From assembly GCA_043806735.1 (NCBI GenBank), contig JAZDGR010000050.1, positions 280 to 64,279 of the forward strand: a stretch of 64,000 bases of DNA. Direction: 5' to 3'. Positions within the stretch are counted from its first letter, which is position 1. Each line of letters opens with the position of its first letter. Positions 7,477-55,541 of this stretch are shown here, in pieces. The notes below the pieces were generated by a model that did no database searches, was not told the DNA's origin, and was given only the letters and a program-made list of their open reading frames with translations. The position numbers were made by a program, and so were the translations under genes. The stretch comes from a bacterium (GTDB lineage Bacteria; Bacteroidota; Bacteroidia; Bacteroidales; FEN-979).

Positions 7477-8702
7477 GAACATTACCCATCGCATATTCCG
7501 CCAGGGCTGCAATGGTAAAACTGGAGTTGACCCCTAAATTTCCCTGAATCGCCGAGCCGTCGAGGATGTACATATTGGGATATCCGAAGGCATTCACGCG
7601 GTTCATCCCGTCATTTTTAATGGTCAGGCTCTTTTTGAAGAGCCCTTTCTTCAGCGTCATTCGCATGGCGTTGTCCACGGTCTGCATCACCAGGAAGATG
7701 ATCGTGTTGGACGCCCAGTCAGGATTGAGCATCATCCGGAGAAACTTCCGGGGATGCAAGAGGACAGTTCCAAGAAACTTTACCGGCCTGAGAAACACAG
7801 GATGCATATTTCCTGTCGCCATGGTGAGCAGTGTCTTCATGAGGTTGGACCCGTCGGGATACTTGACTATCTCAATCCAGGTATCTTTTTCAAGCTTGAA
7901 TATGGAGCTGATTGCCACTCCATTGTTCAGTTTGACGTTTGCGGCGGATGCAGTGCACAGTGTCTCGGAATTGGTGCGAAGAGTTTCTCCCAAACGGTCG
8001 CTCAGGTTGGGAAGGGTTTTGTAAATATATTTCTGGTGAAGCAACAACTTCAGAGTTCCAAGCACCCCACCGGCTACCACCAGCCCTCTGGAACGAAACA
8101 CCAGGGATCCGTTTCGTTTTTTTGATTTTGTGGACACAGAATAGAGTCCGTCCGCAAACTCGACTTTTCAGGCGAGGGTTTCTGAAAGAATGAGAACCCC
8201 AAGCCTTTCGGCAAACCAAAGGTAATTCTTATCAAGCGTATTTTTTGCATTTTCACGGCATCCGACCATGCAGCCGGCACATTCGGTACAGGGGTTCCTG
8301 TGAGGTCCTTCCCCTTGGAAATACGGATCTAGAGAAGCTTTTTCAGAATTATAGTAGACTCCCACATAGACATGATCAAAGGAACTCTCTTTCCCCATAT
8401 CCTTTGCCACCTCCCTTAGCACTTCATCTTCTTTGTAGAGTTTATCCAGCTTAACCCTGCCAAGCATGGTTCCGGCTTTCTCATAGCAGGGCTCCAGCGC
8501 TGACGCCCAATCGTTAAACCGGGTCCACTGTTCGTTCTGAAAAAATCCCGGAGGGGGCTTCATCAGGGTGTTTGCGTAGACCAGGCTTCCGCTTCCCCTT
8601 TTCCAACACCAGCACAGAATAGCCTTTTTCTGCCAGGCGCAGGGCAGACACGCTACCCCCAAAGCCTGAACCTATGACGATATAGTCCCACTCCTCCTTC
8701 AT
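7451..8702 (-). pseudogene. Degraded GMC oxidoreductase (cholesterol oxidase-like)
   Basis: [19 protein letters not shown] motif, [34 protein letters not shown]. Split by a frameshifting deletion, an in-frame TGA (8168-8170) and an apparent C-terminal deletion. Confidence 0.85.
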
Positions 8703-40730: not shown

Positions 40731-40908
40731 ACATCGGATTTTACAGCGAAATAACGGTATTTACAACGGAACGGGCAAACTTAATCGATCATCCCGGGAA
40801 AACTCTAGATCAGTATATGACCTGGTGGATTGCAAGGAAGTGCTTCGTCGTTCTACCTTCTGACTTCCAGTTCTAACTTCGTATTTCTGGCTTCGTACTT
40901 TATTATCG

Positions 40909-40997
40909 CGGAGAGAGAGGGATTCGAACCCCCGGTCCCGGTTCCCCAGGACAACGGTTTTCAAGACCGCCGCATTTAACCGCTCTGCCATCTCTCC
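40909..40997 (-). tRNA. tRNA-Ser(TGA)
   Basis: Reverse complement GGAGAGATGGCAGAGCGG...GCGGTCT-TGA-AAACCGT, long variable arm, GGTTCGAATCC, acceptor TCTCTCC-G. Confidence 0.96.
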
Positions 40998-43016: not shown

Positions 43017-44953
43017 ATGCGAACGTTCTTGTTCACCTTGCTTTTTCTGGTTGGAGTACAAACAACTTTGGCTCAGAAAGAAGGCAAAGCCCTGATCGAC
43101 TCCCTGTATACGGCTTTGCCCGGAATGAAGGAGGATACCGGCATGGTCAGACTACTGGCAGCGATAAACTTCGAAATGCGCATTGTAAATCCCAGAGAGG
43201 GGTTGAAACCGGGTCTTACCGCCCTGCACTCCTCCGGGAAGCTCAATTATCTATACGGGGAAGGGCTATCTCATTATTCCCTCGGAATCAATTATGCTTA
43301 TATGTCAAGGTTTCCTGAATCCGTAGACCAACTCCTGAAAGCACAGGTGATCTTCGAGAAACTCAAGGATTACAATCTTATCTGTGCAACTTATCTGGGG
43401 CTTGCATTATCATACAGAGATCTTGACTCTACTATTTCCTTTAAGTATCTTCTTAAAGCCAAAGAGATAATGCCTCAAAGCACGGTTAGTGTATGGAAAG
43501 TCAGGAACACTGGTAATATTGGCAACATTTACCGATCACTAAATCATTTGGATTCTGCGGGAAAATACCTGTCTCTCCAATTAAAACTGAGTAAGGATTA
43601 TCATCTGAATTATGAAATGATGCTGGCAAAAAACAGATTTGGATGGCTATATTTGAAACGTAACAACCTGGACTCAGCATTTATATTTCTCAAAACCGGC
43701 TTGGACTATTTCAAGTCCATTGGGGCAAACTACCTGGTTGCAGAGAATAGTGCTATTTTAGGCCATATATTGGTAAGGATTTACCTTGCAGATGGTTCAC
43801 ATAAAAACCAGGTTCTCAGGGAAGCCAAAGTTTATGCTGAGGAAGCACTGCAAGCCGCACAGGAGATCGGAATGATCGAGGTATCCGATGCAAGTGTAGT
43901 GCTATCAGATATATATAAAATAGAAGGGAATAGTGCTAAGGCTCTTGATTATCTTCAGCAGTCATATAAATATAAAGATAGCATCTTAGGACTAAAAATT
44001 GTGAACAAAGCTACTTTTCTCAATTGGAAATATGAACAGGAATTAAAAGACAAACAGGTTGAAGTGCTGGAATTGCGCAACAGACAGCAGTTCACATTGA
44101 TCATTGCAACAGGAATAATTGCTGTGATCCTGGTCATCGTTGTGCTCTTTATCATCAGCAGCCGGAAAAAACTGAAGAAGGCATACAACCTGGTAAACCA
44201 GCAAAAGGATGAAATTACCCGGGTCCTCGGTGAACTCAAACTACAAACCTGAAACTTGAAACCTCGAACCTGAAACTTGAATCTGCCAACCAGGAGCTGG
44301 AAGCTTTTTCCTACTCTGTCTCGCACGACCTGCGCGCCCCGGTGCGGCGGATCGAAGGGCTCTGCACCATGCTCGGGGAGGATTACGAGAAACAACTGGA
44401 TGAGGCAGGCAGGGATCTGTTATCCCGCATCACCGGATCGACGGTCCTGATGAACACACTGATAGAGGATATGCTGAAACTCTCCAGGATCACGCGTCAG
44501 TCGGTCACCAAAGCGCCCTGCGACATCAGTGAAATGGCAGGAAAGATCTGCGAGGATGTAAGACTGACCTACCCGGAAAAAGTAGTGATCTGCAATATCG
44601 AAGAGGGAATGCGTGCGGAGGCCGATTCCAACCTGATGCAGATAGCCCTGCAGAACCTGATCGACAATGCTTTTAAATACAGCTACAAAGCAGAACATCC
44701 GGAAGTCACCATCGGAAGTGAAATGAAAGAGAACAAAAGGGTCATCTTCGTCCGGGACAATGGGGTGGGTTTTGACATGAGTCGGGCAGGAAAGCTCTTC
44801 ACCCCCTTCCAGCGGCTGCACAGCGATGAGGAGTTCAAAGGGAGCGGGATCGGGCTTGCAACGGTCAAACGGATTATCGTCAAACATGGAGGCAGCATTC
44901 ATGCTGAAAGCGAGCCCGGGAAGGGGACGACCTTCTTTTTTACGTTTGAATAA
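43017..44953 (+). pseudogene. TPR-sensor histidine kinase, frameshifted inside a heptamer array
   Basis: Signal, TPR and TM regions in the first frame (stop 44250-44252). ESANQELEAFSYSVSHDLRAP HisKA and NLIDNAFKY/DNGVGF/GIGLA HATPase follow in another frame. Confidence 0.85.
44233..44280. repeat. AAC(C/T)NNN heptamer array (one 6-nt and six 7-nt units)
   Basis: aactca aactaca aacctga aacttga aacctcg aacctga aacttga. Confidence 0.9.
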
Positions 44954-45258: not shown

Positions 45259-46938
45259 ATGCAGTTGTTTAACAAAGATTACCGGGCCTTAGGCTACTTA
45301 TGGAAATATATCAGGCCGTTCAAGGAACGATTTCTTTTCCTGAATATCCTGTCCCCCGTTTACTCTGCCCTGGGTGGGGCATCCTTTCTCTTTATCAAGA
45401 GATTACTGGACGATGGATTTCTGGTCAACAATTCCCAGGAAATCGGGAACACCATCCTGATCCTTTTTGGGATTTTCTTTGCCCAGACGTTGATTGATCT
45501 TCTGCAGACCTACCTGCACAACAAAACCACCAACACCATAATGATCGATATCAAAGACAGGTTGTACAATGCCGTTATATCCAATTACAGGGCCATCCGT
45601 ACCAGGCAACAGGCCGGCGAGATCCTTTCGAGGTTTTATATCGACACCAGCAATTTCATCACGCTAATAAATATCCTTTCCTTAGAGCTGATCAAACAGC
45701 TGTTTACCCTGGTGTCCATCATGGCAGTACTCTTCTACCTGAACTGGAAATTCGCCCTGATCCTGTTCCTGGCCTATCCTCTGTTTATCCTCCCATTGAT
45801 AAAACTCGGTCACTGGCTCCGGAATCTCAGTCAGCATTACCTGCACGCCTACGGCAAATCAAACAGTATACTCTACGAATCGTTGTATGGATACCTTATC
45901 ATCAAGACCTATAACCTGATTGCTCATTTCAAGGATAAATACAAGACGAACAATGAGAAGCTGGCCAACAATTTGCTCAGGTCCACCATGATCTCGAAAC
46001 TGGTAGGACCGATCAATGACCTGGCCTCTTTTGTGGGACTGGCCCTGATTCTTTATTTCAGCATTGTACAGGTACAATCAGGAGCCCTCACGGTTGGCAG
46101 TCTGGTGGCATTTCTTGTAGCATTGATGAAGTTCTATCAGCCTGCCAAAACCCTCTTTAATCTTTATAATTCCATCCAATCCGCGTTCCCCGGATACCTC
46201 AGGATGAAGAGCGTGCTGGAATCTCATGAAGATACAACAAGGCATGAAGAAATCCAGAAAGTATCTTTCAAGGAGTGCCTGGAACTCAAACATGTCACGT
46301 TCTCCTATGACAATCAGAAAAGGATCCTCGATGACGTAAGCCTGAGGGTCAATAAAGGGGCAAAAGTGGCTATTATCGGGCGAACGGGCGCCGGGAAGTC
46401 TACGCTGATCAGTCTGCTGCTTGGCCTGATTCAACCCGGGAAAGGAACTATTCTCATCGACGGCAGGAGCTATCAGGAGTTGAACCGGGAAAGCGTATTC
46501 AGCCTGTTTTCCTATATCTCGCAGGAACCTATTCTGTTCAATGATTCGATCAGGTATAACATTCAGCTGGGGAAACTGGAGAGTTCAGGGGATGAACTCA
46601 TTGAGGCCAGCAAAAAAGCACAGTTGCACTCCTTTGTAACGAATATTCAGGATGGATACGATACGATCGTGGGCGACAGGGGGGATATGTTATCGGGCGG
46701 GGAAAGACAACGGATAACCATTGCCAGGGCTTTGCTGAGAAATGCGCCAATCATCATTTTTGACGAAGCCACCTCCTCGCTGGATTATGAAACCGAATCG
46801 GATATTAAAAAGGAGGTTTTCAGGTTATCCGCCGACAAAACACTCATCATAATTACCCATCGGCTTACCACCCTCAAGGGAGTGGATAAAGTATACAATA
46901 TCCAGGATGGTAAACTGGTGGAATCAAACTGGGAATAG
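45259..46938 (+). CDS. ABC exporter, fused TMD-NBD (RiPP cluster)
   Basis: TM domain; GRTGAGKST, LSGGERQR, IIFDEATS. No C39 peptidase domain visible. TACTTTTG -7 box at 45208-45215. Confidence 0.93.
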   Translation: MQLFNKDYRALGYLWKYIRPFKERFLFLNILSPVYSALGGASFLFIKRLLDDGFLVNNSQEIGNTILILFGIFFAQTLIDLLQTYLHNKTTNTIMIDIKDRLYNAVISNYRAIRTRQQAGEILSRFYIDTSNFITLINILSLELIKQLFTLVSIMAVLFYLNWKFALILFLAYPLFILPLIKLGHWLRNLSQHYLHAYGKSNSILYESLYGYLIIKTYNLIAHFKDKYKTNNEKLANNLLRSTMISKLVGPINDLASFVGLALILYFSIVQVQSGALTVGSLVAFLVALMKFYQPAKTLFNLYNSIQSAFPGYLRMKSVLESHEDTTRHEEIQKVSFKECLELKHVTFSYDNQKRILDDVSLRVNKGAKVAIIGRTGAGKSTLISLLLGLIQPGKGTILIDGRSYQELNRESVFSLFSYISQEPILFNDSIRYNIQLGKLESSGDELIEASKKAQLHSFVTNIQDGYDTIVGDRGDMLSGGERQRITIARALLRNAPIIIFDEATSSLDYETESDIKKEVFRLSADKTLIIITHRLTTLKGVDKVYNIQDGKLVESNWE

Positions 46939-46946
46939 GTAAATCC

Positions 46947-47486
46947 ATGCCGATAGATTATACCACGGAGATGATCCTGGCGCTTGACATCCTGAATGCC
47001 AACGGATATTTATGGACACGCGTCAAGGCAAATAACTCGGCTCCCCTGATCAACGAAGGGGATATGATCTGCCTGAAGAAAAGCGGGTATGCATTGAAAA
47101 AGGGGGATCTTGTAGCGCTGGATTACCAAAAGCTATTCATCGTTCAGCGAATTGTCAAACTCAGCGGGGAAACCATTTACACCAAGGCAGATCATTCGGA
47201 AAAAGGCCCGTTCATGCAACCGATCGGGATCGTTGCAGGAAAAGTGGTGCTTATAAAAAAAACACAGGATCTCCTGAATATTGATAACCGGCTCTGCGAC
47301 CGGATTCACCTCCTCATCACACGATATTCAGTAGGACGTAGCGAAACCTACATAAATACAGGATTTTTCTATCGTAAATTTTTTCATAAACTGAGAAGAT
47401 CCATCCTGAAACGTCTATTGAAACTGGAAATCATTATAGGTAGAAAATATGCGAAGAACGTTGATCCGGGATTACAAATCCCTTGA
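46947..47486 (+). CDS. S24/S26 peptidase-like protein with degenerate catalytic motifs
   Basis: RVKANNSAPLINEGD...IVQRIV...YTKAD aligns with the GxSMxP..GD / HR / TKGD pattern but lacks the SM and HR residues. Confidence 0.65.
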   Translation: MPIDYTTEMILALDILNANGYLWTRVKANNSAPLINEGDMICLKKSGYALKKGDLVALDYQKLFIVQRIVKLSGETIYTKADHSEKGPFMQPIGIVAGKVVLIKKTQDLLNIDNRLCDRIHLLITRYSVGRSETYINTGFFYRKFFHKLRRSILKRLLKLEIIIGRKYAKNVDPGLQIP

Positions 47487-48687
47487 ATTTCAGCGTCTGA
47501 ATAAGGTACTCGGGTTGCTTACCCATTACCGGGAAGGGGAACTCAGAGAGCATATACCGTTTATCCGCAGACTGGAGATCAGCCAGTATTACCTGGCATT
47601 GCTGGAGAAACAGCTTGCTACCGAGCCTGAAGTAGTTGCGCAACTGGTCAAGCACAAAAAGGAGACCCTGTTCAATAATCTCTATTACCTTAATCATGCC
47701 GCCCGGCTACTTTCCCGGTTGAAAGAAAGAAAAATCGATTGCATCGTGTTGAAAGGCCTTTCTTTTATCAATCATCTTTATGAAGACATAGGTTTACGGC
47801 CATTTGGCGACCTGGATCTTCTCATTCACCGGGAAGATGTAAGAGGTTTTCTTGAAGTGATGGAACAGGAAGGGTTCAACCTTAAATGTGAAGTGAAAGA
47901 TTCTGACAATACGGATGATTTCGACATGTACAATGCGGAAACAAAGGTGAAGATTGACATTTTAACAACATTAAACGGAGGGTTCTATTTCAGTCGTTAT
48001 TACAACCTGGATACCTCGCAGATCTGGGAGCGGAAAAAACTAGTGAAAATTCAGGACACGGAAACCTACCGGTTAAGTGAAGAAGACGAGCTATTGTATT
48101 CCATCGTTCACCTTGCTTTTCATCTTAATTTTCATGTCGAAATCAAATGGCTTTTTGATCTCCGGTATTTCCTGGAAAAATACAAGAAAACGCTGGATAC
48201 GGGGTACATCATCGAACAGGTCAGAAAAGCGGGACTTACACACGTCATCTTTGCCGTCACAGAGATCATGTATTGGATATTTCAAAAGGATTATTCTGCC
48301 GTTTTTGGGATTGTTAAGCCCCGTTTTTATCTTTTTGATAAAACCTGGCTCAGGTTTTATGCCTTCCCTCCCCGGCTGTTCGGGATCTGCCTGGAATTTC
48401 CCGGAGTCATAAACAGAATGGCGATCACCTTTATGAAATATTCCCTGATTTCCATACCGAAAAAGAAATGGAAATTTATTACCGACCGGGTTTTTCCTGA
48501 TTTTGACCGGATTACCTTTGCCTATACGCAGCGGTTCAGGATCCCCCTGAAACTCTATTTCCCAATGATACGCATGCTATTCCTGCTGTTATCGCCTGTT
48601 TTCCTGACCTGTCTCTTCGTGATCTTCCTGGGTTCGACAGTCATTGTGAAGATCATTCTGTTAAAGCAGACTTTTTTGTATGAATGA
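47449..48687 (+). CDS. Nucleotidyltransferase family protein (NTP_transf_5-like)
   Basis: IVLKG...Y...LRPFGDLDLLI motif, HLAFH...WLFDL. Confidence 0.85.
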   Translation: MRRTLIRDYKSLEFQRLNKVLGLLTHYREGELREHIPFIRRLEISQYYLALLEKQLATEPEVVAQLVKHKKETLFNNLYYLNHAARLLSRLKERKIDCIVLKGLSFINHLYEDIGLRPFGDLDLLIHREDVRGFLEVMEQEGFNLKCEVKDSDNTDDFDMYNAETKVKIDILTTLNGGFYFSRYYNLDTSQIWERKKLVKIQDTETYRLSEEDELLYSIVHLAFHLNFHVEIKWLFDLRYFLEKYKKTLDTGYIIEQVRKAGLTHVIFAVTEIMYWIFQKDYSAVFGIVKPRFYLFDKTWLRFYAFPPRLFGICLEFPGVINRMAITFMKYSLISIPKKKWKFITDRVFPDFDRITFAYTQRFRIPLKLYFPMIRMLFLLLSPVFLTCLFVIFLGSTVIVKIILLKQTFLYE

Positions 48688-49189
48688 CCTTTACGAAGTC
48701 AAGCTGGAACTGGTCGCGAACCAATTACTTTCAGGTCAAACCGTGAAAGTCAGGGCCAGCGGCCACAGCATGACCCCTTTTATCCATGATGGGGATCTAC
48801 TTACCCTGCACAGGGTAAGGACGGCTAACTTACAGCCGGGTGAAATTGTCGCATTCATCCGGAACGGGCTCCTTTTTATTCACCGGATCATTGAAGTCAG
48901 CATGACGGATGAAATGGTTTTGACAAAAGGAGACAACCTGTTGATCTCTGATAAATTATTAAAACCGGAAGAGGTCCTGGGCAGCGTGATCGACATCAAT
49001 GATATATCTGTGACAACCAGGAGGATCATGCATCACCTCTTTTTTCAATTATACCGGTTTTGTTTGCTGGCCGGGAATGTTAAAAACGCTTATGAGAACC
49101 ATAGGATTGTTCAACTATCCATGGATTCTCAAAGGTTCAGGATGTGTTCGGTCATCCTCCGGGTTTACAGGTTTTTCGTTTTTCTGTAA
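48680..49189 (+). CDS. S24/S26-family peptidase (signal peptidase I-like, Ser/His dyad)
   Basis: ASGHSMTPFIHDGD, FIHRII, LTKGDN. Confidence 0.85.
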   Translation: MNDLYEVKLELVANQLLSGQTVKVRASGHSMTPFIHDGDLLTLHRVRTANLQPGEIVAFIRNGLLFIHRIIEVSMTDEMVLTKGDNLLISDKLLKPEEVLGSVIDINDISVTTRRIMHHLFFQLYRFCLLAGNVKNAYENHRIVQLSMDSQRFRMCSVILRVYRFFVFL

Positions 49190-49213
49190 TTTGTTTTTCT
49201 TATTTTTGACGGC

Positions 49214-50101
49214 ATGAACACTATTGACCAACCTCTGTTAGAGAACTATTTTCACGGAGTAAGTGATCTTGGACACGATCGCTTTAATCTCAGGATCGGC
49301 GGAATCGGCCTTTCGGTGAATGCGGTAAAAGATCCCCTGTTTGAAGCAGCGGTATCCAAGTACGAAGAGTTCCTCACACCGGAAAAATTCCCGGAAGCCG
49401 TTCATTTTTATTATGTACAAACGCTTCCTCAGCCGGAAGCCATCACGAAGACGTTCGACACTTACAAAGAACTCTTTACAACATCTTTGAACCGCCATTT
49501 GTACATCTATCGCTGGGACTTCATAGGAATCATTGAACTTGCCGCCCGGACCGGGAAATTCATCTTATTCAACCCCGCCTTTATGACCTATGAATCCATC
49601 ATACGGATTTTTTATTCCCTGCTGACCGTAGAGAACCACGGATTTTTGCTTCATGCCTCCTCCCTGATTCATAAAGAGAAAGGTTATTCTTTTTTTGGCC
49701 TATCCGGCAGCGGAAAATCCACGGTGGTGAAGCTTTCGGAGTCGGATGAATGCCTGACCGACGAACTCACGATGATCAAAAAGGATCAAGGCAGATATAT
49801 TACTGCAGGGACTCCTTTTCATGGAGAGATTCCTCTTTACATAAACAAGACGGCAGCGCTGGCCAATATGTTTTTGTTAAAGAAATCCGAAACAACCCAC
49901 TTCCGTAAAATGAGCCGGTCAGAGATTTATCCGATCCTGCTGAGAAACGTCTTGTTTTTCAGCGATGACTGGGAACTAAGGCAAAAGATATTCACCACCA
50001 TTATCGACCTGGCTGACCGGGTAGCTATTTACGAAATGAATTTTGAAAAAAACGAAAAATTCTGGAGGATCATTGATCATGGATTTAAAGACGAAGATTA
50101 A
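49214..50101 (+). CDS. HPr kinase-related P-loop kinase
   Basis: LLHASSL...FFGLSGSGKST...LTDE...GTPFHG. Confidence 0.8.
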   Translation: MNTIDQPLLENYFHGVSDLGHDRFNLRIGGIGLSVNAVKDPLFEAAVSKYEEFLTPEKFPEAVHFYYVQTLPQPEAITKTFDTYKELFTTSLNRHLYIYRWDFIGIIELAARTGKFILFNPAFMTYESIIRIFYSLLTVENHGFLLHASSLIHKEKGYSFFGLSGSGKSTVVKLSESDECLTDELTMIKKDQGRYITAGTPFHGEIPLYINKTAALANMFLLKKSETTHFRKMSRSEIYPILLRNVLFFSDDWELRQKIFTTIIDLADRVAIYEMNFEKNEKFWRIIDHGFKDED

Positions 50102-50357
50102 GCGCAACGCGAACAGTTCGTTTCAAATTGCCGATGGCAAAGCGGTCGTCATGCTGGCGGTGAATTCAAACATTTTCACCCTGAATGAAATCGGGACCTT
50201 ACTATGGGAACTGCTGGACACACCAAAAACCATTGAAGAGCTGGTGTCGGGCGCTCAGAAAAAATTCCCGGAAGATAATCAGGGAACCATCCGGCAGGAA
50301 ATCCTCGAATTTATCAAAGAATGTTTAACGGAACAATTACTGGTTCAAGGGGATTGA
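50079..50357 (+). CDS. PqqD-family RiPP recognition element (stand-alone)
   Basis: 92 aa; FTLNEIGTLLWELLD...TIEELV...ILEFIKEC...LL winged-helix pattern; GGAGG upstream of ATG 50079. Confidence 0.88.
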   Translation: MDLKTKIKRNANSSFQIADGKAVVMLAVNSNIFTLNEIGTLLWELLDTPKTIEELVSGAQKKFPEDNQGTIRQEILEFIKECLTEQLLVQGD

Positions 50358-50358
50358 C

Positions 50359-51420
50359 GTGCCAAATTTCGAGAACACCGAATCCTACCGGTTCCTGAAA
50401 AAACATGCCGTTAAACACCTTATTCCCCTGACGGCCTTGCTTGAGCTCACCTATCAATGCAACCTGGATTGCAGCTGTTGCTATAATGTCAGAAACGAAC
50501 GACCGCTGCTGACCTTGCAGGAATATGACCTGTTGTTTTCCGACCTGAGGAAGGAAGGAACCTTTATTTTTACATTAAGTGGCGGCGAACCCTTTATGCG
50601 GAAGGATTTTTTCGACATCCTGGATCTGGTCAGGAAACATGGTTTTGGTTTCCGGATTTTCACCAACGGCACCTTACTGAATGAAGAAAAGATGATCCGG
50701 TTAAAGAATTATCCATTACTCGGAATGGAAATGAGCCTTTGGGGATCCAATCCTGAAATCAATGACAAACTGATGGGCAAACCCGGCACCTTTCACCGGA
50801 TCATCGAAACAGCGAAGGGATTAAAAAAACACGGGATTCCGTTCACCATCAAGACGACCGTTTGTGCCGGGAATTATTCCGATTTCGGCAACATTAAACT
50901 GCTGGTTGAAAGTCTGGGAGCCGAGTTCCGCTATTCTCCCTGGCTGACGATGAGGCTGGACGGCGATCGTTCCAATATGAATTTCCGGCTGAATGAACCC
51001 CAGGCAAGAGCGTTCTATACCATTCATGATAAGGCCTATGCCGACCAGGATCCTGTGGCTCAGCGAAAAAAGAATCTGAGCAAATCCACTACTAAAAACT
51101 TCAAGGGATATATGTGCCTTGCCGGGATATCTACTTTTGCACTCAATCCGTTCGGCGATGTATTTCCTTGTATCGATATCCCTGTCAGGGCAGGAAATGT
51201 CAGGGAAACCAACTTCCGGGAGATATGGAAGGAAGCCGCTGTCATGAAAAAATTAAGGAGACTCCGGGTGACCGATGCCAGGGATTGTATGGAATGTAGT
51301 CTCAAGCCCTCTTGTGCAAGATGTCCGGGTATTGCGTTGGTGGAAACGGGCAAACTGACAAACCCGTTCTCTTACGCCTGCCTTTTAGCAAAAATCGAAC
51401 AGGACATTCAAAATTGTTAA
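50359..51420 (+). CDS. Radical SAM/SPASM peptide-modifying enzyme
   Basis: ELTYQCNLDCSCCY (CxxxCxxC), SGGEP, FTNG; SPASM CLAG...GDVFPC...GN...CMEC...SCARCPG...AC. Confidence 0.93.
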   Translation: MPNFENTESYRFLKKHAVKHLIPLTALLELTYQCNLDCSCCYNVRNERPLLTLQEYDLLFSDLRKEGTFIFTLSGGEPFMRKDFFDILDLVRKHGFGFRIFTNGTLLNEEKMIRLKNYPLLGMEMSLWGSNPEINDKLMGKPGTFHRIIETAKGLKKHGIPFTIKTTVCAGNYSDFGNIKLLVESLGAEFRYSPWLTMRLDGDRSNMNFRLNEPQARAFYTIHDKAYADQDPVAQRKKNLSKSTTKNFKGYMCLAGISTFALNPFGDVFPCIDIPVRAGNVRETNFREIWKEAAVMKKLRRLRVTDARDCMECSLKPSCARCPGIALVETGKLTNPFSYACLLAKIEQDIQNC

Positions 51421-51427
51421 AAAAAAA

Positions 51428-51459
51428 TTTGCATTTTGATTTGCAGTTATTTACTTTTA
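51428..51459 (+). promoter_or_regulatory. Putative promoter for the precursor peptide gene
   Basis: TTTG (51428-51431), 20-nt spacer, TACTTTTA (51452-51459; one mismatch to TAnnTTTG). Confidence 0.5.
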
Positions 51460-51508
51460 CCAAAATTTTTTTGTTTTCAACTATTGTTTCACTAACAAAA
51501 GGATTCCT

Positions 51509-51670
51509 ATGGAGAACAAAACCGAAACTCTTTTGAAATGGCAAAAGCCCATGATTGAAGTGAAGGAAATTTTTGAAAAAACTGCCTTAAATTGTGATGG
51601 CAGCCCCTTTAACAATCAACAAACTAACCCGAAGCAAAGCGCCGGTTCTTGTGGCTATTGGTACAGTTAA
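51509..51670 (+). CDS. Putative RiPP precursor peptide, 53 aa (absent from the ORF track)
   Basis: MENKTETLLKWQKPMIEVKEIFEKTALNCDGSPFNNQQTNPKQSAGSCGYWYS; WxxPxI RRE-type leader motif; directly after the rSAM gene; AAGGA upstream of the ATG. Confidence 0.85.
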   Translation: MENKTETLLKWQKPMIEVKEIFEKTALNCDGSPFNNQQTNPKQSAGSCGYWYS

Positions 51671-51680
51671 TGTTACCTAC

Positions 51681-51715
51681 CTATTTCAATCCAGCCAAAC
51701 CAGCCATTGAAATAG
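51681..51715 (+). terminator. Stem-loop after the precursor gene (stabiliser or partial terminator)
   Basis: CTATTTCAAT / ATTGAAATAG 10-bp inverted repeat, 15-nt loop, no clear U tract. Confidence 0.5.
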
Positions 51716-51809
51716 ATTAAGAACATTTTCTTCAGGTATTGCTTTGAATAACCCATGGATTGTATCTTATCTTACAAGATGCAATTTTTGGGTTTTTTAT
51801 GTAACTAGG

Positions 51810-52745
51810 GTGACGACAAAATACGTATACATCTCTTCTCTTCCGCGCAGCGGATCTACGTTGCTTTCCATGCTACTGGGTTCGCATGAAAAGATATTCT
51901 CCCCGGGAGAATTTGTATTGTTCGGTCAGGCGCTTCAGTCTAATTCAACCTGTACCTGCGGGAAACCCATCCGGGAATGCGACTTCTGGGGGTTTATCAT
52001 TGAAAAGCTGACTCAGCAAGGTTTTACAGGCAAACAGGAAAACGGGGGTAACTTTGTTACGCTGGTTTATCCTTTTGAATTCATGAAATCACGGCTTCAG
52101 AAAAGCCTGATAAAACTTTATTACTATGCCTTGCTTCATCATAGCCGGTTCTTAATCGATATTGCGACAGCAAATAGAAAAGGGTATCCCTATCATATGA
52201 AAAAGGCAGTAACTAATTCAACTATCCTGCTCGAGAACCTGTACCAATATTTTCCTGACCCGGATACCATCATACTGGATGCCAGTAAAACGGTCACTAC
52301 ATTGAATCACCTGTACATCAAACAACCCTTTCCGGTGAAAGTGATCGCTTTGATCAGGGACGGGCGGGGCTCCGTAAATTCCTGGCTCAAGTCTGACCAG
52401 ACATCGTTCATTGATACTGTCAAATCCTGGCAGTTCCATATGGAGACCCAGCAAAAGTCGCTTAAGGGCATCAAGGCCGGGGATAAAATCTTTGTCAGGT
52501 ACGAAGACCTTTGCAGGAATCCTGAAGGTGAATTAAAACGGCTGTGTGATTTTTTAGAGATACCCTACCAGGGGAAAATGTTAGCAATGGAGGGTCCGTT
52601 TCACATGCTGGGGGGCAATCCCGGGACGTATGCAAGCACCAAAACGATCCGTCTTGATAACGGGTGGGCGTGTAGTTTTGATAAGGAACAGCTGACTTTG
52701 TTCGACGAACTGGCCGGATCCCTGAACAAGGAGCTGGGGTATTGA
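51810..52745 (+). CDS. PAPS-dependent sulfotransferase
   Basis: SLPRSGSTLL 5'-PSB loop, ILDASK, LIRDGRGSVNS 3'-PB, VRYEDLC..P; likely GTG start at 51810. Confidence 0.88.
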   Translation: MTTKYVYISSLPRSGSTLLSMLLGSHEKIFSPGEFVLFGQALQSNSTCTCGKPIRECDFWGFIIEKLTQQGFTGKQENGGNFVTLVYPFEFMKSRLQKSLIKLYYYALLHHSRFLIDIATANRKGYPYHMKKAVTNSTILLENLYQYFPDPDTIILDASKTVTTLNHLYIKQPFPVKVIALIRDGRGSVNSWLKSDQTSFIDTVKSWQFHMETQQKSLKGIKAGDKIFVRYEDLCRNPEGELKRLCDFLEIPYQGKMLAMEGPFHMLGGNPGTYASTKTIRLDNGWACSFDKEQLTLFDELAGSLNKELGY

Positions 52746-52768
52746 GGGGATCTACCCCATCCCCCCAG

Positions 52769-52794
52769 CCCCCTTCCCCAGGAAGGGAAGGGGG
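52769..52794. repeat. GC-rich hairpin (REP-like or terminator) closing the cluster
   Basis: CCCCCTTCCC-caggaa-GGGAAGGGGG, followed by AAGTACG-type heptamers. Confidence 0.6.
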
Positions 52795-52867
52795 AGTGCA
52801 AAGTACGAAGTCAGATGTACGAAGTACGAGGAAAGTTAGAAGGCAGGAATAAGAATCCTAAAAATTT

Positions 52868-52909
52868 GTCAGGTAACTACCGGTATTTACCTGACTTTTT
52901 TTATCTTTG
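52868..52909 (+). promoter_or_regulatory. Palindromic operator and -7 box of the AbiE operon
   Basis: GTCAGGTAA-c-TACCGGTA-t-TTACCTGAC (28 bp, one mismatched pair), then TATCTTTG at 52902-52909. Confidence 0.7.
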
Positions 52910-52927
52910 CAGCAAATATCAATTTCA

Positions 52928-53653
52928 ATGAAAACAACAGATATTATTGGTGATAAAATAAACAGGCTTCCGGTTGGCTATGTTTTCACCTATGAGTATT
53001 TTAATCTGCCGGTGGACAAGATTGATGCCCTTACCAAGGCCCTTAGCCGTTTGGTACAGGAGGGTAGGATTCGTAAACTCTCTCCAGGCAGGTTCTATAA
53101 ACCCCGACTTACTGAATTTGGAGAACTGCAACCTGAAGTTTACCAGGTGGTGAAGGACCTGCTGGAACAAAATGGTAAAATTTCCGGATACCTTACCGGA
53201 TATTCTGTTTACAACCAACTCGGCCTTACGACTCAGGTTTCCGGTATCATTCAGATTGGCACCAACGAAATGAAAAAAAGCATCACACGGGGCATGTATA
53301 AAATCCGCTTTATGAAGCAGCCAAATAAAATAACCAGAGAAAACATACCCCTGCTGCGCATTCTCGATGCAATCCGTAACATCAAAGAAATCCCTGATAC
53401 TACTATAGAGCAATCCTGTAAAACCCTTTTAACACTCATCAAAAAAATCAATAAATCAGACAGGGAAACATTCCTGCGTCTTGCAAAAAAATACAACCCT
53501 GCTGCACGTGCCATGACCGGTGCAATTTTTGAAATTTGTTTTAGCCCAAAGGCAGCCGAGCCACTGTATAAATCATTGAATCCATCGTCATCATACAAAT
53601 TTGGAATATCAGCAAATATATTACCTAACAAACAACAATGGAATATCCTATGA
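52928..53653 (+). CDS. AbiEi-type (DUF6088-like) antitoxin
   Basis: wHTH KALSRLVQEGRIRKLSPGRFYKP; YNQLGLTTQV; ATGA overlap with the AbiEii gene. Confidence 0.82.
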   Translation: MKTTDIIGDKINRLPVGYVFTYEYFNLPVDKIDALTKALSRLVQEGRIRKLSPGRFYKPRLTEFGELQPEVYQVVKDLLEQNGKISGYLTGYSVYNQLGLTTQVSGIIQIGTNEMKKSITRGMYKIRFMKQPNKITRENIPLLRILDAIRNIKEIPDTTIEQSCKTLLTLIKKINKSDRETFLRLAKKYNPAARAMTGAIFEICFSPKAAEPLYKSLNPSSSYKFGISANILPNKQQWNIL

Positions 53654-54612
53654 ACCTGCACAACGAAAAAAGTTCATTCACAGCCGCTATACAGGCTGCA
53701 TCCGACAGATTAGGAATACTTCCGGTATTTATTGAAAAAGACTACTGGATTACATTGGTATTAAAAAGACTTTCAGAAAGCAAATTCAATGATAGTGTCG
53801 TTTTCAAAGGTGGTACATCTCTCTCTAAGGGACACAAACTCATCAATCGCTTTTCTGATGACATTGATATTGCTGTAATCAATGTTCCTGATATGTCGTG
53901 CAATAAAGTGAAAAATCTTATTCGTGATGTGGAAAAATATATTTCTGCAGACCTGGCAGAAATTACAGATTCTCCGTATGCGAGCAAGGGCTCACGTTTC
54001 AGAAAATCCATTTTCACTTATCCTAAAACAGGAGATTCTCGCTTTTATCAAGAGGTTTCAGACAAATTGAGTATTGAAATAAATTCCTTTGCCAATCCTT
54101 ATCCTTACGAAAAGCGCGAAATCAACAGCCTTATCAGTACGTCTCTCGCATTAAACAATCAAACTGACCTGATAAAGAAATATGAATTAATGCCATTCGC
54201 AATAAATGTCCTTCATACGAATCAGACTCTGCTCGAAAAACTGGTTTCTTTATTCAGATCTTCTTTTGAGAAAGACCCGGTCGCTGGCATTTCTGGTAAA
54301 ATCCGACATTTCTATGATTTGTTTTATCTTTTATCTGATAAGGATTGTAAAGCACTCATAGATTCTGAAGATTTCTCTGCTCAATTCAATGATGTCTGGT
54401 CCCGTGATCAGGTTACTTTTGATGAACCGGAAGGATGGCAGGATAAATCAGTTTCTGAATCACCTTTGTTTCTCATATTTCCTGAATTATGGGATGCACT
54501 AAGAAGTACTTACAACAAGGAATTATTTGCTTTGGCCTTCGCTGAAATCCCTGAAGAAAGAAAGGTTGCAGATGCTTTTATGTACATTATTAACAAGATT
54601 TCCAAGGCTTGA
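53650..54612 (+). CDS. AbiEii/AbiGii-family nucleotidyltransferase toxin
   Basis: IEKDYW, VFKGGTSLSK, RFSDDIDI, TLLEK, RHFYDL. Confidence 0.9.
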   Translation: MNLHNEKSSFTAAIQAASDRLGILPVFIEKDYWITLVLKRLSESKFNDSVVFKGGTSLSKGHKLINRFSDDIDIAVINVPDMSCNKVKNLIRDVEKYISADLAEITDSPYASKGSRFRKSIFTYPKTGDSRFYQEVSDKLSIEINSFANPYPYEKREINSLISTSLALNNQTDLIKKYELMPFAINVLHTNQTLLEKLVSLFRSSFEKDPVAGISGKIRHFYDLFYLLSDKDCKALIDSEDFSAQFNDVWSRDQVTFDEPEGWQDKSVSESPLFLIFPELWDALRSTYNKELFALAFAEIPEERKVADAFMYIINKISKA

Positions 54613-54708
54613 TACACATAAGAGAATAGATTCGTACATAATCCCTCGTGCTTCTTGATTGGTAATTAAGGTTACATTTGCACACAAAAAAACAAATCAA
54701 ACTACAAT

Positions 54709-55005
54709 ATGTATATCTCCATCATGAGCCACTTCATTGATGATAACGGAAACATTGCAAAAGAAATGCATAAAGAAGGCAGAGAACTCGCAAGTTTCTT
54801 TGCACTTCTTGTCGATACGGCCACGAAGAACTATCCTTCACCTGTAAAATCCTCCGGGATAAGATGCAGGAAGAAAAAGTGTACAGGCACCATTGTTATT
54901 GGGATGGATACTGAAAATGAAGTAATTGAGTGGCATTGCACAACATGCAACGAAGGTGGAAAAATAAGTGGCTGGCAAGGTAGCAAGTGGGATAATCGGA
55001 AATAG
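54709..55005 (+). CDS. Small Zn-ribbon-like hypothetical protein
   Basis: CRKKKC...WHCTTC...ISGWQGSKWD. Confidence 0.65.
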   Translation: MYISIMSHFIDDNGNIAKEMHKEGRELASFFALLVDTATKNYPSPVKSSGIRCRKKKCTGTIVIGMDTENEVIEWHCTTCNEGGKISGWQGSKWDNRK

Positions 55006-55014
55006 TTTCTAGTC

Positions 55015-55215
55015 CTATCGCAATTTTTCATTAACATACTCCACCACCCCCTCCATATCCAGCTCTTTATTTGAAGAGAAGTAGCGGATGAAGTGTAAGC
55101 CGAATTCAATCCGTTGGCGGTTCACGGTAATTCTTTCATAGATTGGCATGGTGCCATCTTTTAGCACTTTTGTTCTTTTGATGAAGAACAAGAGGGTACA
55201 TGTTGCTCGTGTCAT
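55015..55215 (-). pseudogene. Truncated tyrosine integrase (N-terminal arm-DNA-binding domain only)
   Basis: TLLFFIKRTK..KDGTMPIYERITVNRQRIEF matches the N-terminus of Bacteroidota integrases; no catalytic domain follows; lies downstream of a tRNA 3' end. Confidence 0.75.
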
Positions 55216-55452
55216 AGCTCTGATTTTAGGTTTACAAAACTAGATTTTCAGAGCAAAAGAGTGAAATGCAAAGTACTGCAAATCAGTGAGAAATCACCTA
55301 AATAGGTGGACTTGGCTGTTTTCGATTTTAGTCCACCGATTAGTCCACCTCATTAGTGCATTTTTCTGCGTTTTTTAGCGTTTTCGGCAAAAAAGAAAAC
55401 CACTGAAAGCGCAGAATTTCAGTTGTTTACGTTAACTTGCTTTATTATTCAG

Positions 55453-55541
55453 CGGAGAGACAGGGATTCGAACCCTGGGACCCAGTTACCCGGGTCAACG
55501 GTTTTCGAGACCGCCCCATTCGACCGCTCTGGCATCTCTCC
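55453..55541 (-). tRNA. tRNA-Ser(CGA)
   Basis: Reverse complement GGAGAGATGCCAGAGCGG...GCGGTCT-CGA-AAACCGT, long variable arm, GGTTCGAATCC, TCTCTCC-G. Confidence 0.96.

Follow-up and report, generated by a model that had tools for sequence, protein, structure and literature searches.

A conserved operon of nine genes, centred on a 53-residue peptide, in a Bacteroidales genome: a putative variant of the LPP and SynChlorMet toolkits with a dedicated sulfotransferase

Among the systems that resemble the locus described here are the linear polyphosphorylated peptides (LPP) of Bacillota, made by LppA/K/B/S/D/N and characterised in 2026. Their peptidase, LppS, has an S29/H68/D93 triad, and their leader reads YxxP...FET; Sulfotransfer_3 proteins occur near 1 of 126 cluster-1 peptidases in that work, and its main text contains 'radical' and 'SPASM' 0 times (PMC13381572). 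SynChlorMet cassettes (TIGR04248–TIGR04251) come from another direction. One of these, in a genome we call G553, scores over the ScmE cut-off and combines an ABC protein, radical SAM (rSAM) enzymes, PqqD, an HprK-like protein, an S26 peptidase and a nucleotidyltransferase (NTase)—the same toolkit as ours—with a Cys-containing peptide that ends in Ser. Lasso clusters of the paeninodin/pseudomycoidin kind share with our locus a WxxP leader, an HprK-like kinase, a DxD NTase and a C-terminal Ser (PadeK, PsmK, PsmN; PMC6993621). Sulfated RiPPs (RaxX/RaxST, Ssl/Ssc; PMC11143521) share a PAPS-dependent, TPST-like sulfotransferase, with a conserved core Tyr and a source of PAPS here to match, but these systems have no rSAM enzyme, kinase or S26 peptidase. 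Finally, a compendium of RRE-rSAM systems, PMC10288494, sets out in its 2023 supplement the 'Other Uncharacterized' precursor groups 15, 16 and 18, of which group 16 has a Y-x-x-P ... F-E-T-A-A-L-A-C leader, several Cys and a terminal Ser.

Our window, the 64-kb stretch of DNA that was analysed, contains nine intact ORFs between 45259 and 52745, all on the + strand and separated, in gene order, by +8, -38, -8, +24, -23, +1, +88 and +139 nt. The first-pass annotation took these nine co-oriented genes for a RiPP-type operon in which lasso-type tailoring genes accompany a radical SAM enzyme, and this stands: the precursor gene is the neighbour of that for an rSAM/SPASM enzyme, the RRE/leader pair is lasso-like, and neither a lasso cyclase nor a B2 cysteine peptidase is found among the nine ORFs, a difference from lasso clusters that would make ring formation radical-based. 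The nine-gene set recurs in relatives in two gene orders, and with different flanking genes. The order is identical to ours in L016/L017, L019 and L020, and circularly permuted in L022 and G408. Since the set recurs while its flanks change, and since the peptide gene is under purifying selection (pN/pS 0.05–0.31 in 21/21 pairs from seven homologues), the operon goes beyond chance; the same ratios, across all pairs, led us to reject the reading of the peptide as a chance ORF. The locus is a real, conserved nine-gene operon built around the gene for a 53-residue peptide. A sigma-70 promoter scan stayed at chance level (9 found, 14.1 expected), no RNA holder is listed for 49200–52800, and viral contigs scanned with the rSAM alignment contained zero relatives. 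The best plasmid match proved to be a YcaO/TfuA cluster unrelated to the cassette, and other rSAMs of the same order (about 500 aa, E 1e-41 to 1e-57) had no such cassette in the three examined of eight.

The precursor gene (51509..51670, +) belongs to no family, and an ORF of its type occurs only once in the genome; homologues 56–81% identical occupy the same position in related loci. The leader, W11-x-x-P14-x-I ... F22-E-K-T-A-L, is of the lasso WxxP type, and the core runs from C29 to C48-G-Y50-x-x-S53, with the C-terminal Ser that goes with such leaders. Eighteen homologues conform to C-x18-C-G-Y-x-x-S after a [WY]xxP leader. Invariant in all 18 are E23, A26, L27, C29, K42 and C48; position 34 is F/Y and position 36 N/S, again in 18/18, Y50 is kept in 17/18, and S53 in 17–18/18. 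Position 28 is Asn in the window's peptide vs Ala in 13 of the 18 homologues. A C-terminal Ser also ends 10 of 12 more distant candidate precursors, picked by eye; of the genome's 1491 long ORFs, by comparison, 89 end in this way. In all probability the 53-residue ORF is the substrate of the cassette and would be bound by its RRE; the gene, its conservation and its leader motif are plain.

Searches with the precursor found little else: no NCBIfam family for any of the 18 sequences, 3 matches among 301 genomes of one phylum (in the leader only, the cores being different), 0 among 201 of a second, and 1 among 151 near G408, that being G408 itself. ESM Atlas matches to the peptide all scored under 0.9 and serve as leads only. 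Between the precursor and sulfotransferase genes (51671..51812, +) the transcript would form strong hairpins followed by a T-rich run (z -4.3). Such hairpins are present in 7/7 homologous spacers (z -3.6 to -6.9) and are likely an mRNA stabiliser or a partial terminator.

The system had been proposed as undescribed, and this was overstated. Its RRE + S26 + HprK + NTase + ABC core is that of LPP (PMC13381572), a real SynChlorMet cassette carries the same toolkit plus two rSAMs, and precursors with a homologous leader appear as group 16 in the PMC10288494 supplement. With LPP, the window has in common a discrete RRE, an SpI-like peptidase, an NTP transferase plus an exporter of MsbA-like type (PF05402, TIGR02228 over its cut-off, PF14907, PF00664/PF00005), and an LPP-like leader, [YW]xxP, that ends near F-E-(x)-T; by its motifs, though not by its HMM scores, the HprK-like kinase would be a further common element. 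The LPP leader consensus proper, YxxPxVLxHQxIxFETxxS, in which core position 3 is a Ser, is missing here: the leader W-x-K-P-x-I-E-V-K-E-I-F-E-K-T-A-L-x-C has no Ser three residues past the Thr, and its spacing differs from that of LPP by one residue. LPP, moreover, are linear and have no ring-forming enzyme, whereas the window has an rSAM/SPASM protein. For these two reasons we do not file the locus under LPP. To the LPP set it adds the rSAM, a two-Cys core with a terminal Ser, a second and apparently dead S26 protein, and a dedicated sulfotransferase, all in a Bacteroidales host.

Nor do we file it under ScmE/SCM. SynChlorMet has two rSAM/SPASM genes, ScmE and ScmF, and the window one, which falls outside the ScmE branch of our tree; the family cut-offs are missed throughout, with 20.9 bits against 125 for ScmC, 23.4 against 100 for ScmD, 117.4 against 400 for ScmE and 55.2 against 400 for ScmF. 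In the two SynChlorMet stretches compared, no sulfotransferase was seen. The core of group 16 differs from ours, the sections of PMC10288494 consulted here discuss no tailoring enzymes, and the supplement has 0 matches to TALAC, FEKTAL or CGYNDS, motifs of our subfamily. The operon would be a variant, itself uncharacterised, of a toolkit for peptide modification, the first description of whose core dates from 2026. What is new is the dedicated sulfotransferase with its conserved Tyr, an S26 protein without the catalytic His, and an NTase with a predicted membrane anchor.

The first steps of maturation are the easiest to assign. The stand-alone PqqD/RRE (50079..50357, +; 92 aa; PF05402, 49.4 bits) has as its nearest solved sequences 9x90, 5v1u and 9x8z—PbaB1, TbiB1 and LppB—PbaB1, of a lasso system, being the closest, and it would bind the WxxP leader. 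'Two S26 peptidases' had been annotated, and this is right for one of them. S26b (48680..49189, +; 169 aa) is an anchorless signal peptidase I of the archaeal/ER type (TIGR02228, 55.3 bits; cut-off 51.85) that aligns to SEC11A/C over the S-M-x-P, H-R and K-G-D motifs; its S30/H68/D85/D91 are intact, and invariant in 7/7, and it thus looks catalytic, with the Ser/His/Asp set of LppS. Very probably it would remove the leader, RRE-dependently, as LppS does. Cleavage after A26-L27-x28 would leave a 25-aa core of 2738.11 Da, unmodified, and cleavage after T25 a 28-aa core of 3036.28 Da. S26a (46947..47486, +; 179 aa) has the S24/S26 fold (PF00717, 24.3 bits; cut-off 23.3) and is homologous to S26b (hhalign 96%), but the genes are not equivalent: Ser31 is retained, in 21/21 clusters, while the loop is two residues shorter and Gln67 replaces the His base in 20/21. 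On the strength of that Gln we reject two active peptidases; S26a is quite probably dead, and would be a non-catalytic adaptor or scaffold. The MsbA-like ABC exporter (45259..46938, +; 559 aa; PF00664, 133.6 bits; PF00005, 110.2 bits) is LppD-like, lacks a peptidase domain, has orthologues of 63–88% identity in the same cassette, and would export the product.

The rSAM/SPASM maturase (50359..51420, +; 353 aa from a GTG start; PF04055 + PF13186) abuts the RRE gene in every locus examined, has no close paralogue found in the genome, and gives a model with pLDDT 84. Besides C34/C38/C41 it has seven SPASM cysteines (253, 271, 310, 313, 319, 322 and 341). It reaches no NCBIfam cut-off among the 25 best of 71 matches; the top ones are heme-biosynthesis models (AhbD/NirJ), a role that we reject, the score being 137.8 bits against a cut-off of 500 and AhbD/NirJ lying outside the rSAM clade. 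Fold searches do not discriminate, since CteB, SkfB, PqqE and SuiB all match at 16–20% identity. A six-residue active-site profile (the method of PMC10288494), Y-S-F-S-I-D, was compared with five reference enzymes, no triceptide synthase among them, and scored SkfB 11, StsB 5, SuiB 5, PqqE 1 and CteB 0; within this set the four barrel positions match those of SkfB (Y-S-F-S vs Y-T-F-S), and positions 5–6 do not.

We lean toward thioethers formed from Cys29 and Cys48, probably S-to-C-alpha (sactionine) links, for which Lys42 and Asn36 would be candidate acceptors. An SPASM/twitch rSAM beside a Cys-containing core is the mark of sactipeptides, and the two invariant core cysteines and the seven-Cys SPASM domain point the same way. 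The enzyme might, instead, join carbons at an aromatic residue—a three-residue cyclophane at F34-x-N36, for instance, or a Lys42-aromatic link—and leave Cys29 and Cys48 to pair as a disulfide once the peptide is exported, with no other change to the pathway. The core does contain F/Y34-x-N/S36, which fits the aromatic-x-X motif of triceptides and the aromatic-x-N/S form in particular; these positions and K42, each 18/18, are as well conserved as the cysteines, which lie far apart where those of hairpin sactipeptides are clustered, and the leading NCBIfam matches include models for WgkB, MftC and PqqE. We think this rather unlikely, all the same. Of 71 NCBIfam matches, the 25 best include no triceptide-maturase model; by active-site profile the enzyme stands well away from PqqE and scores lower with SuiB than with SkfB. 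Related rSAMs in two other genomes (G918/G877) adjoin two-Cys precursors that keep the post-leader Cys without the aromatic motif, one core having no Phe, Tyr or Trp at all; and PMC10288494 predicts its six uncharacterised precursor groups to be sactipeptides, among which group 16, with our leader, may be counted.

Two enzymes would elaborate the other end of a thioether-linked core. The HprK-like P-loop kinase (49214..50101, +; 295 aa) has weak HMM matches only, TIGR04355 (E 8e-5) and ScmC (E 1.8e-4), both far under cut-off; its His147, Walker A (162–170) and D183-E184 motifs are kept in 8/8 rows. By analogy with PadeK and PsmK it would likely (poly)phosphorylate the C-terminal Ser53, Ser32 being the alternative site. 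The C-terminal Ser is the substrate site of PsmK/PsmN, and PsmN puts hexoses on the phospho-Ser (PMC6993621). Against this stand the kinase's place under every family cut-off and the precedent of LppK, whose target is the internal core Ser3 and not a terminal Ser (PMC13381572). The NTase (47449..48687, +; 412 aa; PF14907, 143.7 bits) is PsmN/LppN-like, with both Asp of D121-x-D123 invariant in 7/7. It has a predicted C-terminal membrane helix (376–394), and a hydrophobic C-terminal segment is present in all homologues examined; anchored in this way it may well place a sugar or a nucleotide on the phosphate as a cap, in the manner of PsmN.

The PAPS-dependent sulfotransferase (51810..52745, +; 311 aa from the GTG at 51810, or 333 aa from an alternative TTG at 51744; PF13469, 68.3 bits; residues R13/T17/E34/S191) had been counted in the operon, rightly. 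It lies 3' of the precursor in 8/8 distinct loci whose sequence covers that stretch, and so belongs to the operon; we reject it as a bystander, because in L022 and G408 the gene is internal. Its model is closest to TPST1 (Z 18.9, rmsd 4.6, 237 aligned), and the three best structural matches are all TPSTs, in a tie with an olefin-synthase sulfotransferase (Z 17.9); by sequence, the CurM sulfotransferase ranks first. We favor sulfation of Tyr50, with PAPS that would come from the genome's own cysD and cysNC, which lie on another contig than the operon, whereas the ssl cluster has its own cysCDN. Parallels to SslST are the C-G-Y-[WYF] of the precursor and, in the enzyme, R13/T17/E34, the R/T/E residues being general to PF13469. 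In a thioether ring, SslST sulfates the Tyr of a Gly-Tyr-Phe segment, via R12/T16/E33 (PMC11143521). The putative link between Tyr and sulfotransferase comes from one clade compared with three outgroup genomes, and not from the gene context of the 11 distant precursors; no sulfotransferase orthologue turned up in either G918 or G877, where the precursors are without Tyr.

The sulfate might go, instead, to a sugar added by the NTase to phospho-Ser53, or to a Ser/Thr hydroxyl, and the product be a sulfo-glyco-phosphopeptide. PF13469 spans carbohydrate and beta-hydroxyacyl sulfotransferases, the best PDB sequence matches are the CurM and Ols enzymes, and the sole NCBIfam match is a weak one to NoeE (E 5e-4). 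A phospho-Ser-linked hexose of the kind that PsmN makes (PMC6993621) would provide the acceptor. We think this unlikely, given that TPSTs score Z 18–19 vs 13.2 and 9.8 for heparan-sulfate and trehalose sulfotransferases, that Tyr50 is so widely kept (17/18), and that distant NTase-bearing cassettes have no sulfotransferase within the stretches compared.

Taken together, the best reading would be a thioether-linked, Ser-phosphorylated, Tyr-sulfated peptide, trimmed of its leader and exported, and we put its probability at roughly 0.55. We would see in it, with low confidence, either an extracellular signal or a peptide that is surface-associated, and less readily a classical bacteriocin. That the peptide is a modified tag or carrier, staying at the membrane and tied to envelope or exopolysaccharide assembly through the anchored NTase, is quite improbable. 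The membrane helix predicted for the NTase in all homologues examined would suit such a role, and LPP and paeninodin clusters do sit in capsule loci, their native products undetected (PMC13381572). But in the loci of this clade no polysaccharide gene block was seen next to the cassette (judged by reading ORFs, with family scans for a minority of the flanking ones), a dedicated exporter and leader peptidase are always present, and hairpins 3' of the precursor gene are typical of an abundant small transcript.

A bolder version of the exported, modified peptide, and a doubtful one, would make the locus the prototype of a RiPP class in which four chemistries are combined on the 25-residue core: radical-SAM rings of new connectivity (Cys to Lys42/Asn36), Tyr sulfation, Ser polyphosphorylation, and a sugar or nucleotide cap. 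Assembly would take place at the membrane, with S26a docking the RRE-leader onto the NTase; a complex predicted for NTase residues 1–370 with S26a scored 0.01, the mark being 0.32, and speaks neither for nor against this. LppN was inactive in a heterologous host (PMC13381572), and an S26a adaptor would resemble the missing partner invoked for its silence. The literature searched yielded neither a characterised product of an HprK/RRE/S26/NTase/rSAM cassette nor a RiPP that combines radical-SAM crosslinking, sulfation and phosphorylation; if we are right, the three would be united in one peptide. RRE-dependent S26 leader peptidases would then reach beyond Bacillota, and a conserved pseudo-peptidase would gain a role in RiPP assembly. 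What SynChlorMet-like cassettes make is a question on which this also bears. With one rSAM, a short precursor and few key residues (C29, F34, N36, K42, C48, Y50, S53), each enzyme can be given a specific and cheap test. The HprK/RRE/S26/NTase/rSAM cassette, for its part, is widespread in uncultured anaerobes, with relatives in records of Omnitrophota, Bacillota, Acidobacteriota and other lineages.

Nine intact ORFs, all on the + strand, occupy 45259–52745, much as the first-pass annotation had drawn them; its claim of nine co-oriented genes was right, and the feature is real. In operon order they encode an ABC exporter, an S24/S26-like protein (S26a), an NTP_transf_5 nucleotidyltransferase (NTase), a signal peptidase I of the archaeal kind (S26b), a P-loop protein, PqqD, a radical SAM enzyme with SPASM domain (rSAM; 50359–51420), a 53-aa peptide (51509–51670) and a Sulfotransfer_3 protein. 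Successive junctions measure +8, -38, -8, +24, -23, +1, +88 and +139 nt. Families were assigned by Pfam and NCBIfam, except that the peptide has no assignment and the P-loop protein has only weak HprK-related and ScmC matches. Among the matches listed for the 11 proteins scanned, S26b is the sole one to pass an NCBIfam cut-off (TIGR02228, 55.3 versus 51.85).

We infer the chemistry of the operon throughout: it would work like the tailoring line of linear polyphosphorylated peptides (LPP) or paeninodin, with a radical SAM ring-former added. LPP is the closest characterised system. In that system core Ser3 is polyphosphorylated by LppK, leader removal after F-E-T is the work of LppS (S29/H68/D93) and requires the RRE, and deletion of lppN is without effect, for which the authors blame a missing partner; the LPP core has no radical SAM enzyme, unlike the window operon (PMC13381572). 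The SynChlorMet (SCM) cassette and the operon have a toolkit in common. Membership of SCM was considered and rejected, the locus failing the SCM tests, and by their defining tests the operon stands outside the LPP, SCM and lasso families alike. In the open literature, from which subscription journals are largely excluded, we found no paper on the product of an rSAM, kinase, S26 and NTase combination, with or without a sulfotransferase. What is new here is a dedicated sulfotransferase with a matching Tyr, a conserved putative pseudo-peptidase, and an apparently anchored NTase.

The precursor is the sole ORF of its kind in its genome. It is under purifying constraint: pN/pS is 0.05–0.31 in all 21 pairs of seven homologues (43 ungapped codons). 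Strong hairpins lie 3' of the peptide gene in 7/7 loci. Its profile, searched against 1.84 billion representatives, returned 12 clusters. The 18-row alignment, whose counts overstate independence because seven of the rows are close kin, has E23, A26, L27, C29, K42, C48 and S53 invariant, F or Y at position 34 in every row, and N36, G49 and Y50 in 17 rows each. In the leader, W or Y occupies position 11 in 18/18 and P14 is present in 17/18; the leader conforms to [Y/W]xxPx[hydrophobic], the leader motif of discrete lasso-type RREs (PMC13381572). The solved sequences nearest to the RRE are PbaB1, TbiB1 and LppB. Precursors with a homologous leader form 'Other Uncharacterized' group 16 of PMC10288494, and the window precursor's subfamily is absent from that paper's precursor spreadsheet. 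Six uncharacterised groups are predicted there to be sactipeptides; group 16 may be one of the six.

In the radical SAM enzyme, C34/C38/C41 are accompanied by seven SPASM cysteines. With seven ligands, one auxiliary iron site stays free, a trait seen in thioether-forming enzymes, among others. Its model (pLDDT 84) matches CteB, SkfB, PqqE and SuiB about equally. At six active-site positions taken from PMC10288494 it reads Y-S-F-S-I-D, with BLOSUM62 sums of 11 for SkfB, 5 each for StsB and SuiB, 1 for PqqE and 0 for CteB, and this profile points weakly to sactionine chemistry. Related enzymes in two other genomes, G918 and G877, match the rSAM profile at E about 1e-75 and read Y-T-F-S-V-L; the precursors there have two Cys, and one of the cores has no Phe, Tyr or Trp. 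An aromatic crosslink in the window's peptide, with the Cys pair forming a disulfide, is nonetheless possible, since F/Y34-x-N/S36 and K42 are conserved to the same degree as the cysteines. The rSAM falls, in a 39-row midpoint-rooted tree that left out characterised maturases, within a clade of 31 rows (support 99/96), apart from true ScmE and NirJ/Ahb-like enzymes; most rows of known context in this clade are linked to kinase, RRE and S26 genes. At residue 40, a site of the SAM-cluster motif that is usually aromatic, the ten close homologues covering it all carry Cys (C-x3-C-x-C-C), whereas in distant relatives His or Tyr predominates.

S26b keeps S30, H68, D85 and D91 in 7/7 homologues and can be aligned with SEC11A/C, which argues that it is likely the leader peptidase. 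By analogy with LPP the candidate cut would fall after T25; alternatively it may fall after A26-L27-x28, an A-x-A signal-peptidase motif. The unmodified core would weigh 3036.28 Da with the T25 cut and 2738.11 Da with the cut before C29. Residue 28 (51590–51592) is Asn in the window, Ala in 13/18 precursors and Ser in 3/18, and this Asn may shift or slow leader cleavage. S26a is homologous to S26b (hhalign 96%), and is probably catalytically dead, to judge from its residues: its loop at the Ser is two residues shorter than that of S26b, Gln replaces His in 20 of 21 clusters, and K-A-D stands in place of K-G-D in 20 of 21. It is at least as conserved as S26b (mean column identity 77% versus 68%), and immediately precedes the NTase in every locus showing both. 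Elsewhere, S26-fold domains occur in fusions with NTase, PqqD or ABC proteins; the fused S26 of L002, a locus from Omnitrophota, retains Ser and His, unlike S26a. S26a may act as an adaptor. The most divergent S26a homologue, P0156, retains His where the other 20 carry Gln, and possibly represents a stage on the way to inactivity.

Across 8/8 rows the P-loop kinase retains His147, the Walker A motif and D183-E184; the last corresponds in HprK to D-D (D158/D159 in PsmK, the pseudomycoidin kinase). PsmK phosphorylates the Ser at the C-terminus, and this phosphate then receives hexoses from PsmN (D134/D136) (PMC6993621). Family precursors end in Ser in 17/18 cases, the exception being extended by five residues, as do 10 of 12 candidates at distant loci, chosen by leader motif and position, versus 6% of long ORFs in the window's genome. 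With the PsmK precedent, these frequencies favour Ser53 as the putative target over Ser32, present in 14/18. The NTase keeps D121-x-D123, and all homologues examined have a C-terminal hydrophobic segment (376–394).

For the sulfotransferase model (pLDDT 77) the nearest structure is TPST1 (Z 18.9, rmsd 4.6, 237 aligned), in a tie with tick TPST (Z 18.3), TPST2 (18.0) and an olefin-synthase enzyme (17.9); heparan-sulfate enzymes fall below this group (Z 13.2), and CurM ST ranks first by sequence and by Foldseek. SslST, whose sulfation target is a Tyr flanked by Gly and Phe (Gly-Tyr-Phe) inside a thioether ring, requires R12, T16, E33 and S183 (PMC11143521). The window enzyme's R13, T17, E34 and S191 are invariant in 7/7, and the precursor core ends in C-G-Y-[WYF]. 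The gene follows the peptide in 8/8 loci whose DNA is visible at that point (the window, G001, G004, G006, G007, G408, L020 and L022), with near-duplicates counted once (L016/L017 with G006; L019 with G004) and L018 and L021, which end before the peptide, excluded. G918 and G877, genomes of unstated completeness, yielded no orthologue, and a third, G1059 (completeness also unstated), gave only a weak, incomplete match, on a different contig; the precursors of all three have no core Tyr. In the window's genome, CysD and a fusion of CysN with APS kinase are encoded on a contig other than the operon's (C54, 12730–15676), near a glycosyltransferase-like ORF. It also has a second, distant sulfotransferase (contig C152, 4407–5923; E 3e-9 to the cassette profile).

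The names of homologues place the clade in Bacteroidales/Bacteroidia. The rSAM is matched in 3/10 same-genus genomes and 0/50 others of the family, and the precursor profile in 4/10 and 0/79; a search of 400 genomes across the order gave one close match, in another family (G408, E 1.9e-187), and a metagenome scan gave seven loci. The window's gene order is preserved in L016/L017, L019 and L020, with fragments of it in G004, G006 and G007. In L022 and G408 (rSAM 54% identical) the full set of nine forms a circular permutation: kinase, RRE, rSAM, peptide, sulfotransferase, ABC, S26a, NTase, S26b. Flanking genes vary from locus to locus, and the patchy distribution of the cassette fits gain or loss as a unit.

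Upstream in the window, a TPR sensor ORF (43017–44252) and a HisKA/HATPase ORF (44342–44953) have the look of a single histidine kinase interrupted by a change of frame near 44250—a real break or an assembly slip—inside a short repeated stretch. Downstream lie a DUF6088 and AbiEii pair (52907–54612), a 66-aa Arm DNA-binding integrase remnant (55015–55215, - strand) and tRNA-Ser(CGA) (55452–55541, - strand). This region, 52907–55541, has a GC content of about 0.39 and may be an island, now decayed, located at the tRNA. A second tRNA-Ser, tRNA-Ser(TGA), lies at 40908–40997.

Among related cassettes, one that exceeds the ScmE cut-off occurs in 7/101 genomes of one family, and comprises an ABC gene, a pair of rSAMs, a Cys-containing peptide that ends in Ser, PqqD, an HprK-like gene, S26 and NTase. 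L064 carries a genuine SynChlorMet cassette; its likely precursor, a 66-aa peptide with Cys repeats and a terminal Ser (8277–8477, - strand), is encoded between PqqD and the second rSAM. Omnitrophota cassettes L002 (2904–11187) and L001 (1418–5937) have three rSAMs around one Ser-ending precursor, and L002 encodes a 631-aa S26-GNAT-NTase fusion. Two single-rSAM cassettes (PqqD, rSAM, kinase, S26, ABC and NTase) have basic, Pro/Arg-rich candidate precursors that end in Ser (L050, 13205–13474; L051, 13397–13579).
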